Positions 2,799 to 53,671 of a stretch of 64,000 bases of DNA are shown here, in pieces. The notes under the pieces are model-generated. The model saw only the letters and a list, made by a program, of their open reading frames with translations. It had not been told where the DNA came from and made no database searches. The translations under genes were made by a program, and so were the position numbers. Origin of the DNA: Naegleria gruberi (taxonomy: Eukaryota); NCBI GenBank assembly GCA_000004985.1, contig GG738871.1. The stretch is one strand, 5' to 3'. Position 1 is the stretch's first letter. The number at the start of each line of letters is the position of its first letter.

Positions 2799-4712
2799 CT
2801 AATGTTGCAGGTAATCATGATGAACACGACCAGCAGGCATGATCATGTCAACCTTAAAGTTAAAGGCACCAACAACTTGCTTGACAGGGAGATCACTAAT
2901 TGGAGCGTTAACGTGAGGAATGAGTGCAAGCTTAGCATCTCCCTTATAGGCACTAGTTACATTTAGGTTGGCATGTTCCATTCTAACCAATTGAACAATA
3001 GCTGGATCACCACGAACGTCAGGAATATGCTTTAAGAATAATTGAGGAGTGGACAAGTAGGAAACGACATCTTCGAAAGCCATTCTTTCATACTTGTAGG
3101 ACATTGTACCAGTTGCAACTCTGCAACCATTGCAATCCAATGTACCCTTCAAAGTATCTTGAGTTGGAGCGAATGTAATACCATCACAGAACTTTTGAGG
3201 TAAACCAAGACATTCTCTACCATATGTAATTGGAGATGAAGAATCCAAGAAACTCATAGTGTTAAAGTGGATAGAGTTACCTTCGTTATCAGTACATGGA
3301 ACAATCAAGTCAACCTTGTAATAACTACCAATACCAGTACCATGAGTATTGACGAATTGAAGAATTACAATATTGTCTTCATTTGGAGTGAGTTGATCTG
3401 GAATCTTTTCCAACAAAGATTCTCTATCTGTTACATATTTGATAACCATGTATTCTCTGTCTTGGAGCTTTGAAGCAGATGGCTTATAGGATGGACATGT
3501 TACTGGCATTGCCAATGACTCTTCTGTAATTTTCTTTTCGGTAAAGATTGATCTGTATTGACCTGGTTGGACAAACATTTGGTGGAATTTTTGAGAAACA
3601 GCCTTATTTTCTTCAGTTGGTTCGAGATAATCATGCAAAACATTACCGTATGGCAACAAGATATCAGCCATCATGTGTTTACCTTGAATAACCTTCTTGA
3701 CAGGCAAATCAGCAACTGGTGCATTAACATTTTCAACCAAGTGCAATCTAGCTGGACCTTCAAAGGCAAAATGCAACTTTTTAACTTGCAAGTTATATGA
3801 AACAATTTGGGCAATCTTTGGCTTGAAATCAACATCAGGAATAATCTTCAAATTAATATTGGTCTTTCCCATTGATTTCAAAACAGTATCATGATCAAGT
3901 TCAGTGTGTTTGTAAGCCATTGTACCTTGAGCAACAGTTTCTCCCTTATATTTCATAACACCAACAACTGTATCTTGAATACATTTCATGGATGGGTGAG
4001 CATGTTTTTTCTAATTATATGACACAATTAATATTTCCATTTTGCTTCCGAGATTTAAAACTTACAGGAAAACCCCAAATTTCACGACCTTAATATTTAC
4101 AAGTTATTGACACAAATTAGATAATTGTTGAAATACTACTTACCAGCAGCAATTGGTGGTTCAATATCCAAATACATTTGGAGAGTAAGATTAACTGATT
4201 CTCCATTATAAGTGCAAGGAATGACAATACCTGATTCGGAATACTAACAATTAATTCATCATATATATTAAATTCTCAAAATCATTAATATCACTTACAG
4301 ATCCGAAACCAGAAGAGTCTGGCATGTTAATCCTTTAAAGAAGTTAATATCATTTCTGTAATTAAAAACACATACCATTCATACAATACATGACTATTTT
4401 CATTAGGGACAAGTGGTTCTGGAACCAAAGCACGAAGAGCTTCGGCATCAGTTTCATACGTAACAATAAAGTATTCTCTGTTCTTGAAAAAGTATGGTCC
4501 TAATATCAATATTATTGTAACCGATGAAAATATATGAAATAACAATGATGAATGATAACAAAGATGACAAACTTACCTCTCGGATAAGAAGGAGACATAA
4601 TAGGAGTAGAAGGTAATCCCAAAATCATATCCTTGGTAAATTTACCCTTCTCTTTACCTGGTTTAATAATTGATTTGAATGCTCTAGCAAAAACTGAAGG
4701 TGAAACTCTCAT
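2799..4712 (-). CDS. Protein with two tandem acetoacetate decarboxylase (ADC)-like domains, 5 exons, ~522 aa
   Basis: Exons (minus strand) approx 4712..4577, 4499..4376, 4332..4299, 4243..4144, 3973..2799; phases consistent and total length is a multiple of 3. Introns of 77, 43, 55 and 170 nt with GTAAGT/GTATGT donors. Domain 1 starts MSPSYPRG...[23 protein letters not shown]. Domain 2 starts [13 protein letters not shown]...[24 protein letters not shown]. Both match the ADC-family N-terminal signature from memory; no search was run. Confidence 0.5.
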
Positions 4713-5517: not shown

Positions 5518-7612
5518 TTAGTGTTCATATAAAGTGGCGAGATTAGAAATAACTTGTTGCTTAACTTGTTCACTTTCAACTGCGAGGACAATCTTTCTAA
5601 AGACCTTCTTTTTCTTCTTCTTTTGATTGTTGAGGGATTTCAAATTTTCTTCAACTGAAACTTCTTCATCTTCTGTTGGAGCTGATGAAGCAGCTTGTTG
5701 ACGAGTCTTTTCAGTTTCGGCCAAATACTTGGTGAGAGCTTTACCAAAAGCAACACCCAATTTAGAGGAGGAAACTTCATCGTCCTTCTTTAACTTTTTA
5801 AAGAATAATTCTTCACACAATGGAAGACCTAGACTACCAACAGTATCTTGTTTCAAAGCTTGAATCAATGCAGAAACATAGGTTTCAACCAATGAATCCA
5901 AACTAGCATCAATACCTTCTTCTTCCTTATAGGCAACAGCAGTAGCATTGAAGAGATATCTATCAAATTCAGGATCAGCCTTTTCTTCTTCAGTCAATTC
6001 AACTGTAGAGACAGAGTGTTGAAGAGCTCCCTTTCCTTGATTGGCTTGTTGGAGTTTCTTTTCAGTGGACTTTTCAGGTTCCTTGACTTCAATACGTGGT
6101 CTTTCAGCAGATTGCAATCCTTCAAATTTACGAAGAGTAATCAATACATCGAGAATGGCATCAACAAAGAGGCCCTTAACACCTTGTGGATTAACAACAA
6201 TGTTAACCAACTTCTTTTCTTCAATGTGCTTAGTGGAACATAATCCTAAATATTGGAAGAATTCCTTAGCAATTTCCAAGTTTGCCTTTGGATTGGCTCC
6301 ATCAGAAAGAATGTGAGCAATCTTGAACTTGTCACCAACAACTTCCAATTCACCAACATAGAGCAATTTCTTGCCCTCTTTTTGAACAATAAAGTATTGA
6401 CCTCTATCATTATAGAATCCATAAACTGAATCAGTATCAAAAGAGAAGCTATGTTTCATCAATTCTTCATAGGATAACATGAGTAAATTTTCTGGAACTA
6501 CTTGCCAAGCACCTTGTTCCATTTCTTCCTTTCTCTTTTGTAACTTTTTAAATCTGGAATATCTTTCCAAATCAGCTTCTCTTTCTTCCTTTGTCTTTTT
6601 ACCTCTTGAACGAACATCAAGTTTAAGCTTTTTCAAATCATTAGCTTTGAGGAATTGTTCATCATCTTCAGTCAATTCTTTTGGCTTTCTTCTAACCTTA
6701 ATTTGTCTAACATTAGACAATTTTGAAACCAATTCCTTCTCCGATTCCAAACTAGCAACTTGCTTATTTTGATTTGGAGTCAATTGTTTAATATGTTCCC
6801 AAACCTTCTCAATCACAATGGTTTGTTTGTACAATTTTCTACAATCAATACCACGAGATTTGAACAAGACTTTTTCAGAGGCTGTTGTTGGTTGATCTTC
6901 TTCATTATTGGCGCCAGAATTTGATGCCTGTTGATTGAGTGCGTAGGTAGCTGAATTGGCTCCGTGTGTAGAGGCATCGTGACGAGCGTACAATTGATTC
7001 AACAAGGCTTCCCATACCACTTCGTGATGGACAATGGTAGAGATACGGAATCGACGACATGTAAGTTCAATGCTCAGGGCAATGTCACGTGCTGAGAGGA
7101 AGGAGAAGATGTTGGCGAGAACGTGATCATTGGATCCACTTTCTGTGATTGGACTTTAAAAGTTGGATCGAATTGAATAATCAATATAATTATTTTGTTG
7201 TTTATATATTATTATTATTATTATCATCATCATCATTAAACAATTAATAATAATAACAAATAAAAATTATATTATTAATATTAATTAGTTAATTAGTTAA
7301 TGATTATTATAAAACTCACGTAAAAACACCCAAATCTTTAGGTTTCGAAACTTTAAACTTTTCTTCACCTGCATCTCTTTCAATGACCATAGTAATGGTT
7401 TGATTATTCTTTACTGATAAATCCCACAAGGAAATCTCATTGGATGTTAATTCTACATTGTTAAAATAACAAATCACTTTATCTGTTGGTGTCAAGTTGG
7501 TATGTTGATGGACAAGACGTTTAATGTCAGCGATTGAGGTTGAGTTTTCAACATCATCAAATTTTAGTGAATCTGCAATGTTGGCACCTAAGAGTCTGAT
7601 GAAGAGTCTCAT
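5518..7612 (-). CDS. Ubiquitin-like domain + F-box protein, 2 exons, ~642 aa, long charged/coiled-coil C-terminal region
   Basis: Exon 1 is 7612..7320 and encodes the Ubl-like fold MRLFIRLL...TITMVIERD. The 166-nt AT-rich intron runs 7319..7154, with GTGAGT donor and TTTTAAAG acceptor. Exon 2 is 7153..5518 and begins in phase with an F-box-like motif DHVLANIFSFLSARDIALSIELTCRRFRISTIVHHEVVWEALL. There is no in-frame ATG upstream of the F-box within exon 2; a stop lies immediately upstream, which supports the spliced model. Confidence 0.55.
7190..7312. repeat. AT-rich microsatellite-like tract (ATT/ATC/TAA repeats) inside the intron of the Ubl-F-box gene
   Basis: ttattattattatcatcatcatcattaaacaattaataataataacaaataaaaattatattattaatattaattagttaattagttaatgattattat. 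Confidence 0.6.
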
Positions 7613-46736: not shown

Positions 46737-47198
46737 TTGGTTTGTTCCATTTGGATTTTGCATATTTTTCTATACGTTTACCAATTGAAATGTTACAAAT
46801 ATCACATACAACAAAACTTTTATCAATTAATAGAACATTATCAACAACACTTTCTTGTTATTAGTCAACATGTTACCACAGTGGAAGGACAGAAGAAGTT
46901 TTATGGTTTAGTTTATGTGGATTTTAATAAAAGGTATGTGTTGTATGATAATTTTCTATTATACGATAAACAGTTTAAGGTACCAATCTGCATGTTCACA
47001 AATCCCCCATTCACAAACCATGGCTGGTCAGGAATGCCGCAATCATCTATGAACGAGGAAACCTACAACGAAGCATGTTTCCAGTTCGATATCATGCTCA
47101 AGATATGTGACTACAGAGTCTTCATCTTGGTTAACCTCAAAGGTCAGATTGACTCAAAAAAGTCGAGTTTATGTAGTCCTACAGAAAAGATCCTGTAG
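46737..47198 (+). CDS. Hypothetical ORF (153 aa) containing an NPPF motif (FKVPICMFTNPPFTNHGW) reminiscent of N6-adenine methyltransferase motif IV; possibly a gene remnant
   Basis: ORF only. NPPF followed by MPQSSMNEETY...FILVN weakly resembles the MT-A70-like DPPW...FLWVTN arrangement, but the ORF ends soon after. No continuation found. Confidence 0.25.
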   Translation: MVCSIWILHIFLYVYQLKCYKYHIQQNFYQLIEHYQQHFLVISQHVTTVEGQKKFYGLVYVDFNKRYVLYDNFLLYDKQFKVPICMFTNPPFTNHGWSGMPQSSMNEETYNEACFQFDIMLKICDYRVFILVNLKGQIDSKKSSLCSPTEKIL

Positions 47199-47566
47199 AA
47201 GTACAGTCAATGGTTTTATCCAATTTGTTAGAGTGAGGGGATGATATTGGCTTGGAAAGTGTGTCGGGTGGTGAGGGAAAGTTATGGTTCAATTTATGAA
47301 GGTGAGAAAAATAGAGAAAAACTAAATTCAAGAAAAAGTTTGAGGTTTGAAGAAGGAGAATTTTAAGATTGAAGAAGGTGTGGTATTAGCTAATATTTGC
47401 CATGCATGCTAAGTTACATATAGATAATAGATTACACACAAATTTTACAAATATTGGGTTTGTAACAATTTAAAAGAGTTTATATGTATGAATCAAACTG
47501 TGAAGCAGGGGCTTATCAGCCGAATGAAATATGATAAATTTAGTGTATTTTCATTATGAATGTGAA

Positions 47567-47647
47567 GCAGGGGTTCCCGAGTGGTCAAAGGGGGTAGACT
47601 CAAGTTCTACTGCGCAAGCTTCGTGGGTTCAAATCTCACCTTCTGCA
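47567..47647 (+). tRNA. tRNA-Leu (anticodon CAA), class II with long variable arm
   Basis: GCAGGGG-TT-CCCGAGTGGTCAAAGGGG-GTAGA-CTCAAGT-TCTAC-TGCGCAAGCTTCG-TGGGT(GTGGG)-TTCAAAT-CTCAC-CTTCTGC-A. A 7-bp acceptor stem with two G·U pairs. Anticodon loop CTCAAGT. T-loop TTCAAAT. Long variable arm. Confidence 0.8.
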
Positions 47648-51553: not shown

Positions 51554-51607
51554 ATCCAAGCTCTGCAAATAAAGAAATCTGTGAATAATATGGCAAACAA
51601 AACTATC

Positions 51608-51679
51608 CTCCCATGCCGGGAATTGAACCCGGACCTCCTGGGTGAAAGCCAGGTATCCTAGCCATTGGACTACACGGGA
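51608..51679 (-). tRNA. tRNA-Glu (anticodon UUC)
   Basis: Reverse complement reads TCCCGTG-TAGTCCAATGGCTAGGATA-CCTGG-CTTTCAC-CCAGG-AGGT-CCGGG-TTCAATT-CCCGG-CATGGGA-G (72 nt). It is near-identical in layout to eukaryotic tRNA-Glu(UUC). Confidence 0.85.
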
Positions 51680-52159
51680 ATATATTCAACAGGTAAATGT
51701 ACCCTTAATGGACTAAAAGGAAAATGCTGTGAGCAAAAAGATTGCTGCTCTACTTAGTTTTTTTTTCACTTAATGATTTAGACGGGAAGCCTGCCGGGAA
51801 TATGGCGACTGTCCCGCTACAGTCTTTGACTGTATGAACTGTGAGGTACGTCGTCTTTCGAGTCAGTAAGAGAGAGTGATTGGAGGAAGAGGCACTGAGT
51901 AAGTTTATTCATTGATTTTTAAATTGATCACCTAGATAAAAAGTATTTTGGTTAAAAAAATTCATAATTGCTTTGATCTCTATGTTTAACAAGTATTACA
52001 ATCGAATCTAAAGTTACAAGGAAAAGTTTCAGCCACGTTAAAACTCAACTGTTAAATTGATGAACATTGTCTAAACTTTATGAGATAGTCAACAATGAAA
52101 ATAAGCAATATTGGAATTCCACTGAAATGAAGATTATTTACATGTTAGTTTTTTAATAT

Positions 52160-52696: not shown

Positions 52697-53671
52697 TTTT
52701 GAATTAATTATTGAAGAATGATATAATTGAAGTTTTGTTGTTTTTTTTCAAATTGTTGTTGAGTAATTTTCAGTAATATTCTGCAGTTTTAAAGTGAAAT
52801 CCACGCAATTCTGTCGTCATCATTTTTTTGTAAACTTGAAAAATGTCGTCAGCAGCAGATAAATATAGATTGTCTTGTAAATTTACCATAGTAGTGTTTG
52901 GTGTAGTGACAAAGCTCAAAAAGCTATTGACTCGACAATCACGTGATTATGTGTTAATGTTTCAATTGAAAACATGAAAGAATAAAAGCAAAAGTTAATT
53001 TTGTAAAAAGACTACAGCACCACAGGTTCCCAAGTTGTCTCCAACCTCAGTACTGATGTGGCTCGACGATGTTTAACTTCTCAAATCGGACGGGATGAGG
53101 TGCATTCATCGTGATATGGCCGTAGCCATCAACAACCATAATTTCTGAAATATAAATCTACTACTAAAAGAAGCTCTACTGTGAATCACAAACATCAATT
53201 CCAATAGCTAATATATAAGGTGACTACCAAGAGTTTTTTGGAGTGTATCAATTTATTTCTCACTCCATTTAGACAAGTACTACAAGTCTTCATTGCATAA
53301 TTTAACTTTAATCAAATTATCATTCAATATCCTTTAGGCTTTAACCAATCTCCGGAGGTTCAATTCATTCAAATCTTCATCAATGTATTTGGTACCAATG
53401 ATGACAACAACTCAGTAATCATTATCTATGTCCGCAGAAAATAAATGGCTTACATCAGCCATGACTCTTATGTTGCGTTCTTGTTGTTCGCTCCTTCTTG
53501 CTGCGGTTCTCTTCCTGTGTGACTCAACAACGATAAATTGTAAATCGAAAAAGACTTTAAAAAAAAATCAAGCCTAGGAGAAGCTACTCACTTTCTATCA
53601 ACATAGCTTGTAAATTCACACACCCTCTGCTTGTCTGTTCAAACTAGTAATTTTCGTGCGATCAAATCGAA

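Follow-up and report, generated by a model that had tools for sequence, protein, structure and literature searches.

Acetoacetate decarboxylase (ADC) is the textbook case of a perturbed lysine pKa and has been studied as a homo-oligomer, the bacterial enzyme reportedly being a large one, a dodecamer. The true ADCs of Clostridium acetobutylicum (3BH2), Chromobacterium violaceum (3BGT, 3BH3) and Legionella pneumophila (3C8W) are single-domain proteins of about 245 amino acids, each encoded by one gene. Other ADC-like proteins, namely MppR (4JM3), Sbi00515 (4ZBO, 6EEJ) and Swit_4259 (5UPB), keep the catalytic lysine and carry out aldolase, dehydratase or cyclase chemistry. Arg29, Glu61 and Glu76 of the Clostridium enzyme we take to be catalytic or active-site residues. 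Its Lys115 is the Schiff-base lysine with lowered pKa, and Lys116 points away from the site (PMC11388336). Here we describe a gene of the amoeba Naegleria gruberi, located at positions 2799-4712 of a 64,000-nucleotide stretch of contig GG738871.1 (assembly GCA_000004985.1; the whole stretch is referred to as the window). It encodes two ADC domains in tandem, of which the first is predicted to be a complete enzyme and the second lacks the Schiff-base lysine.

The gene is complete and runs on the minus strand from 4712 to 2799, exactly the ends that an initial annotation of the locus, made from the DNA letters, had given. It comprises six exons, and not five as that annotation had counted, separated by five GT-AG introns of 77, 43, 55, 55 and 55 nucleotides (nt). 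Translation starts at an ATG at 4712-4710, the earliest ATG downstream of an in-frame TGA, and ends with a TAG at 2801-2799. The spliced coding sequence of 1629 nt specifies a 542-amino-acid protein which, in a database search, was 100% identical over its full length to XP_002676628.1 (NAEGRDRAFT_79950, UniProt D2VGY2), deposited as 'predicted protein [Naegleria gruberi]'; the present gene model is the deposited one. Exon 1 (4577-4712) encodes residues 1-45 and the first base of codon 46, including the start codon, a presequence-like N-terminus and the SPSYP motif. Exon 2 (4376-4499) carries R53 and E86, exon 3 (4299-4332) follows from the spliced gene model, exon 4 (4144-4243) carries E101, and exon 5 (4066-4088), only 23 nt long, encodes GREIWGFP. 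Exon 6 (2799-4010) opens with the codons of K140 and K141 and contains the last 129 residues of the first domain, the linker, the entire second domain and the stop codon, with no stop in between. Thus, the fusion can be read directly from the DNA. An open reading frame called by the program at 2799-3989 lies inside this exon.

As described below, bacteria encode an ADC pair as two genes, and nothing else speaks for two separate genes in N. gruberi or for a fusion created by the gene model. An artefact of this kind is excluded. One stop-free exon starts midway through domain 1, takes in the linker and continues until domain 2 ends, and complete two-domain reading frames derived from transcriptomes of other protists are fused. 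The initial annotation would have given way to evidence of two separate transcripts; the continuity of exon 6 and the fused single transcripts of other protists stand against that possibility. Furthermore, when the coding sequences of the orthologues from Naegleria fowleri and Naegleria lovaniensis were rebuilt, they showed the same two-domain architecture despite four and five exons, respectively, with intron positions unlike those of N. gruberi. Finally, published proteomics covers 66% of the 60.8-kDa sequence, and a coverage of two-thirds cannot derive from one half alone. The three Naegleria orthologues contain three (N. fowleri, L088 1501-3380), four (N. lovaniensis, L089 1501-3370) and five (N. 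gruberi) introns. In N. lovaniensis one of them lies within the C domain, a region that is a single long exon in N. gruberi.

Both halves of the protein were recognized end-to-end by the Pfam ADC model (PF06314, cutoff 29.8 bits). The N half matched over residues 36-268 (3624-4607, a genomic span that includes introns 1-5) with 241 bits and an E value of 1.5e-71, and the C half over residues 307-540 approximately (2808-3509) with 159 bits and an E value of 1.4e-46. The proposal of two tandem ADC-family domains in one eukaryotic polypeptide, for which this very search had been suggested, is therefore borne out, and the N-terminal ADC motifs quoted in its support are present in both halves. The domains are joined by a linker of residues 269-306 (3510-3623), which is the fastest-evolving segment of the protein. 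The NCBIfam model for acetoacetate decarboxylase (NF002614, curated cutoff 150 bits) scored 320 bits with the N half and 205 bits with the C half. In phmmer searches the N half aligned over its whole length to 3BGT (E 5e-66), 3BH2 (E 4e-62) and 3C8W, whereas its match to Sbi00515 was marginal (E about 2e-4 over 80 residues). Compared with the solved enzymes from Clostridium and Chromobacterium, the halves show about 45-55% identity. Both halves belong to the canonical decarboxylase lineage.

An AlphaFold2 model of the whole chain, calculated from a 29-sequence family alignment, reached a mean predicted local distance difference test score (pLDDT) of 93.8 and a predicted template modelling score (pTM) of 0.90. 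The only disorder was seen in residues 1-14, and the linker was partly helical with a pLDDT of about 80. The pTM indicates that the two domains are held in a defined mutual arrangement, and the order of strands and helices in the second half repeats that of the first. This predicted model agrees with the pseudo-dimer that the initial annotation had envisaged. Foldseek superimposed the model on 3BGT, 3BH2 and 3C8W with target-normalised template modelling (TM) scores of 0.89-0.97, a root-mean-square deviation (rmsd) of 0.9-1.0 Å and 44-47% identity, the aligned half being unspecified. With MppR, Sbi00515 and Swit_4259 the TM scores were 0.74-0.78, the rmsd 2.3-3.5 Å and the identity 12-18%. Membership in the MppR/Swit_4259 type, to which the protein had at first been assigned, was rejected on the basis of these values, set against 44-47% identity and an rmsd of about 1 Å for the true decarboxylases. 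The NF002614 model, passed by both halves, and the nearest structures contradict this assignment in the same way.

The two domains differ strikingly in their catalytic residues. The ADC domains of 87 homologues were cut out individually, and 102 of full length were aligned to the Clostridium enzyme. Arg29, Glu61, Glu76 and Lys115 were kept in all 29 eukaryotic N halves, and the five catalytic-site residues of the characterised enzyme were invariant or nearly so across N halves. In N. gruberi the corresponding residues of the N domain are R53 (Arg29), E86 (Glu61), E101 (Glu76) and K140 (Lys115), the last of these lying in the motif FPKKH and followed by K141. K140, encoded at 4008-4010, is the equivalent of the Schiff-base lysine and is invariant in all N halves. 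By its residues the N domain is predicted to be a catalytically complete enzyme. In contrast, Lys115 was absent from all 41 C halves, its position being occupied most commonly by Gln and otherwise by His, Thr, Cys, Ala, Leu, Met, Phe, Ser or Asn. The Glu61 position of the C halves holds mostly Gln or Ser, and the Glu76 position mostly Lys, with Arg, Glu, Leu or Val in the remainder. The N. gruberi C domain has R324 at the position of Arg29, Q357 at Glu61, K371 at Glu76 (codon 3315-3317), Q411 at Lys115 (codon 3195-3197, in LPQKF) and K412 at Lys116. This domain preserves the fold and many structural motifs but has lost the catalytic lysine and both glutamates; of Arg29, Glu61 and Glu76 just the arginine remains.

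Without an equivalent of Lys115 the C domain cannot use the Schiff-base mechanism of the family. Judged from its residues, it is a family member by descent and is not expected to act as a decarboxylase through the Schiff-base lysine. An MppR-like or aldolase-like identity for the C domain was likewise rejected, since no lysine occupies the catalytic position. The initial annotation had asked whether the Schiff-base Lys/Glu pair persists in one or both halves; it is retained in the N half and lost from the C half. The unspecified chemistry that it had allowed for the protein as a whole gives way to a more precise picture, in which the N half carries every catalytic residue of the characterised enzyme and the C half is devoid of the Schiff-base lysine.

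The loss of these residues is not accompanied by decay of the domain. Between N. fowleri and N. lovaniensis the ratio of nonsynonymous to synonymous substitution rates (dN/dS, Nei-Gojobori method, dS about 1.1) was 0.014 in the N domain, as against 0.040 in the C domain. Across the family the mean pairwise identity was 58% among N halves and 38% among C halves, and the two halves within one protein are about 36% identical. The C domain is thus faster-evolving yet constrained, under strong purifying selection, and no decaying relic.

Such constraint would also be found if the C domain had been neo-functionalised, with K371, placed in the former active-site pocket, as a relocated Schiff-base nucleophile in a bifunctional protein that combines, for example, a decarboxylase with an aldolase or hydratase for a related keto acid. 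Apart from the dN/dS of 0.04, this idea draws on the Lys found at the Glu76 position in most C halves of the main eukaryotic clade, including all those of Naegleria, on the retention of the Arg29 and Lys116 equivalents in most C halves, and on the non-decarboxylase Schiff-base chemistry of other ADC-like branches (titles of PDB entries 4ZBT, 6EEJ and 4JMC). However, four eukaryotic C halves carry Arg instead, the second eukaryotic clade carries Glu, and in two others the residue is Leu or Val. The bacterial partner genes described below have Ala, Gln, Gly or Ile at 76 and Met or Gln at 115. Hence, the lysine-less partners share no nucleophile, and yet every one of them has been retained beside an active copy. 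Relocation of the nucleophile to K371 is the main rival explanation, weakened by the residue variation at the Glu76 position, and we regard it as unlikely.

Two-domain homologues were found in N. fowleri, N. lovaniensis, Tetrahymena species, Acanthamoeba castellanii, Arcella intermedia, Monosiga brevicollis and Salpingoeca rosetta, and therefore span four eukaryotic groups, the Heterolobosea, ciliates, Amoebozoa and choanoflagellates. In other protists complete two-domain reading frames are present on single assembled transcripts (EukProt TRINITY entries), and the same form occurs on many environmental contigs. The fusion is the usual eukaryotic form of the ADC enzyme and no peculiarity of one protist. 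A fused double domain is consequently less unusual than the initial annotation had supposed: named species in four eukaryotic groups have it, and bacteria have the unfused pair. The family is small, with 693 relatives at E <= 1e-3 when the C half was searched against 1.84 billion representative proteins. In a table of a phylogenomic study from 2014, COG4689 (acetoacetate decarboxylase) is listed among the eukaryotic genes traced to the mitochondrial ancestor, with its location given as 'unknown' (PMC4198247). Literature searches for eukaryotic, tandem and pseudoenzyme ADCs and for the protein accessions returned no paper on the tandem architecture and no published enzyme assay of any eukaryotic member.

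Two further observations concern this group of proteins. A second two-domain clade (P0031; L001 1-9045 and L002) resides on compact, intron-poor contigs with all seven called genes on one strand. The neighbours of P0031 are of eukaryotic type, namely a phosphatidylinositol transfer protein, a PAE/Notum-like esterase and a cyclic-nucleotide (cNMP)-binding protein of 1100 amino acids, and in the C half of this clade Glu76 is retained and Met takes the place of Lys115. A protein of 505 amino acids, P0012, has both domains without the N-terminal extension and an Ala/Arg-rich composition that looks high in GC; either a bacterium or a GC-rich eukaryote might be the source of this fused form, and the contigs that carry it are shorter than 2 kb.

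Single-domain hits without Lys115 led to a metagenomic bacterial contig (L004) with two ADC genes 1 nt apart. The first contains the full catalytic set (FPKK, YTETG), and in the second both Lys115 and Glu76 are replaced by Gln (FPQK, YTQTG). Scanning bacteria and archaea, with each species represented by one genome, yielded 576 stretches encoding relatives, and the best 80 loci were inspected. Two adjacent, separately translated ADC reading frames were present in 15 of these 80, which together with L004 makes 16 pairs; none of the 15 paired loci had the two fused. Paired loci include those of the isolates Sandarakinorhabdus sp. AAP62 (NZ_ANFY01000009.1, L030) and Acidovorax delafieldii CCH4-A2 (L032), as well as metagenome-assembled genomes labelled Blastomonas (L026, L028), Sphingomonas and Azospirillum. 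In every pair (16/16) exactly one gene encodes the complete set R-E-E-K-K, and in its partner Met or Gln replaces Lys115, and Ala, Gln, Gly or Ile replaces Glu76. At loci with a single gene Lys115 was kept in 69 of 70 cases; the sole exception, L005 247-1002 (P0124), lies on a 1.2-kb contig without visible neighbours. Other full-length single-domain homologues without Lys115 are P0154, P0137, P0163, P0201 and P0222. The lysine-less genes of the pairs are always found beside an intact one (16/16), and the eukaryotic ones are all fused to one.

The active gene precedes the inactive one in 14 of the 16 pairs, the order being reversed in two. Spacers measure -4 to 30 nt, and many contain a GGGAG-like ribosome-binding site (Shine-Dalgarno-like). 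In several pairs both reading frames share the same frame, and the short spacer starts at the stop codon. Hence, fusion would need little beyond loss of that stop.

We analysed the domains in neighbour-joining trees with 200 bootstraps; since these are distance-based, the groupings obtained may alternatively reflect long-branch effects or gene conversion between halves. The main eukaryotic C halves formed one clade in 179-180 of 200 replicates, and the main bacterial partner genes did so in 200/200. These two clades were joined to each other in 95/200, and all C halves together formed one clade in 17/200. In a second eukaryote-like group (P0025, P0026, P0031, P0036) the N and C halves grouped together, along with the single-domain protein P0052, in 177-190/200. 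The pairs L004/L022 and L011/L016 fell apart from the main bacterial pair clade, and their within-pair identity of 57-69%, compared with about 50% in the main clade, agrees with this separate placement. The simplest reading of the trees is that the active-plus-inactive pair originated independently at least three or four times. Common descent of the eukaryotic C half and the bacterial partner genes is weakly supported (95/200), and the bacterial partners score better on a profile of eukaryotic N halves than on one of C halves.

The surroundings of bacterial ADC genes offer some indication of substrate. On contig L007 the ADC gene is flanked by genes for a short-chain dehydrogenase (SDR) and a patatin-like lipase, and ADC-SDR or ADC-patatin fusion proteins are among the database matches (P0054, P0057, P0077, P0083). 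We read these neighbours, with a putative specificity for the SDR, as a context of ketone-body catabolism in which 3-hydroxybutyrate or polyhydroxybutyrate would be converted to acetoacetate. On two unrelated contigs (L007 4169-6526 and L004 200-4153) bacterial ADC genes are situated downstream of MbnB/HvfC (DUF692/DUF2063-type) and DoxX genes.

The name ADC could still be an annotation transfer, with the N domain acting on another beta-keto acid or in a different Schiff-base reaction. The ADC-like superfamily does contain enzymes misannotated as decarboxylases, as titles of PDB entries attest, and our literature searches found no biochemistry paper for any eukaryotic member. Against this stand the five catalytic-site residues that are invariant or nearly so in N halves, the 320 bits scored by the N half with a true-ADC model whose cutoff is 150, the 44-47% identity and rmsd of about 1 Å to characterised enzymes, and the bacterial relatives adjoining or fused with the (putatively specific) dehydrogenase and the lipase. 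That the N domain has some other physiological substrate is conceivable yet unsupported, and we consider it improbable.

Horvathova et al. 2021 list XP_002676628.1 (Supplementary Data 2, sheet 1) in a putative mitochondrial proteome of 946 proteins for N. gruberi (PMC8134430). The entry (60.8 kDa) reports 30 unique peptides, 66.1% sequence coverage and a TargetP mitochondrial score of 48, and the intensities climb over three gradient fractions, as those of mitochondrial markers do (PMC8134430). By these co-fractionation data the protein is mitochondrial in N. gruberi. Compared with the bacterial start, the protein is extended at its N-terminus by about 25 amino acids (4638-4712), with seven Arg/Lys and one Asp/Glu in this extension. 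From its composition the extension is probably a mitochondrial presequence, and Arg/Ser-rich extensions of a similar kind are present in most full-length homologues. The main text of a 2026 paper on the Acanthamoeba mitochondrial proteome makes no mention of acetoacetate.

Taken together, the data are best explained by a nuclear-encoded mitochondrial ADC with a built-in non-catalytic partner domain, that is, a covalent pseudo-heterodimer, a reading to which we assign a probability of roughly 0.65. The N domain would convert acetoacetate to acetone and CO2 via a Schiff base on K140, the substrate being suggested by residues and identity. The C domain would be an old, diverged copy that takes the place of a second oligomer subunit as a non-catalytic partner; within a larger oligomer it may help the active domain to assemble, stabilise it or regulate it. 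Acetoacetate arises in mitochondria from 3-hydroxy-3-methylglutaryl-CoA (HMG-CoA) lyase or from acetoacetyl-CoA, and in a lipid-oxidising amoeba such an enzyme could serve, on general grounds, as an outlet for surplus acetyl units. Several points weigh against this interpretation. We infer acetoacetate as the substrate from the 45-55% identity to characterised enzymes and from residue conservation, and we likewise infer a partner or regulatory role without catalysis for the C domain. This domain retains R324 and K412 and has gained K371, so that a binding or even a catalytic pocket is possible. The mitochondrial location derives from co-fractionation and not from imaging. MultiLoc, one of the three predictors listed for the protein, gives a best hit coded 'P74' (PMC8134430); that this code stands for peroxisome is a guess.

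On this reading the N. gruberi protein is the fused counterpart of the two-cistron ADC arrangement seen in many Proteobacteria. Partners that arose repeatedly and independently, and always beside an active copy, argue that a mixed oligomer is advantageous. More tentatively, and with less than even confidence, we suggest that ADC obligatorily comprises two components, both in eukaryotic mitochondria and in many Proteobacteria. A lysine-less paralogue would have been recruited at least three or four times, would have been fused in eukaryotes, and would exert a prozyme-like control of assembly or activity; the eukaryotic gene might have come from a proteobacterial operon by stop loss.

Acetone formation in eukaryotes is usually treated as spontaneous, and we know of no human counterpart of the protein described here. 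Amoebae, both free-living and pathogenic (Naegleria, Acanthamoeba), ciliates and choanoflagellates have in it a conserved and abundantly detected candidate for a mitochondrial acetone-forming enzyme. This is relevant to what lipid-burning protists do with surplus acetyl units. That an active copy is repeatedly paired with a lysine-less one suggests a heteromeric form of ADC, for which no describing paper was found in our literature searches. The pairing provides a clean natural case in which a pseudoenzyme partner evolved repeatedly and was then fused to the active gene, and, for a classic enzyme as well as for enzymatic acetone production by eukaryotes, it raises a question that can be tested.

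The remaining features of the window were noted in passing. A reading frame of 456 amino acids on the plus strand (1190-2560) contains a right-handed beta-helix region (Pfam PF13229, 64.5 bits). Its Thr/Ser/Pro-rich stretch followed by a hydrophobic tail at the end suggests a surface-anchored or glycosylphosphatidylinositol (GPI)-type protein. Immediately upstream of the ADC gene and on the same (minus) strand, a Lys/Glu-rich reading frame of 500 amino acids (5518-7020) had no Pfam match at E <= 0.01. A cluster of small RNA genes comprises, in order, a U3 small nucleolar RNA (46982-47210, minus strand, 77 bits), tRNA-Leu(CAA) (47567-47647, plus strand), tRNA-Glu(TTC) (51607-51680, minus strand) and a 5S rRNA (53009-53127, minus strand, 104 bits).

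In comparison with the single-domain ADCs of C. acetobutylicum, C. violaceum and L. pneumophila, the N. gruberi protein has the same fold and belongs to the same PF06314/NF002614 family. Its N domain keeps the equivalents of Arg29, Glu61, Glu76, Lys115 and Lys116, and the same Schiff-base mechanism is expected. Unlike these bacterial enzymes, it is eukaryotic and mitochondrial, and it adds a targeting extension and a lysine-less second domain. It shares its overall fold with MppR, Sbi00515 and Swit_4259 (TM 0.74-0.78) but differs from them in that its C domain has no lysine at the catalytic position and its N domain is a canonical decarboxylase. In make-up it resembles the bacterial two-gene pairs, which likewise combine a complete ADC with a paralogue lacking Lys115 and Glu76, tightly linked and with the active copy first in most cases. 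The bacterial pairs are, however, separate cistrons with their own start codons, whereas the N. gruberi domains are fused, and where the bacterial partners have Met or Gln at 115 and Ala, Gln, Gly or Ile at 76, the N. gruberi C domain has Gln and Lys.

Pseudoenzyme partners are known from other systems, such as the 'prozyme' of trypanosomatid S-adenosylmethionine decarboxylase and the eukaryotic 'double hot-dog' 2-enoyl-CoA hydratase 2, which contrasts with the single hot-dog dimers of bacteria. Folds and chemistry are unrelated to those of ADC, but in each a conserved paralogue lacking catalytic residues accompanies an active enzyme, as a separate or a fused partner, and what bacteria make as a two-chain dimer can be fused in the eukaryotic form. 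The ADC partner resembles a prozyme in that catalytic residues are lost, purifying selection persists (0.040) and the partner always accompanies an active copy. Thus, the N. gruberi protein represents a known type of enzyme in a new, conserved configuration, with a pseudoenzyme twin undescribed in the searchable literature, rather than a new kind of system.

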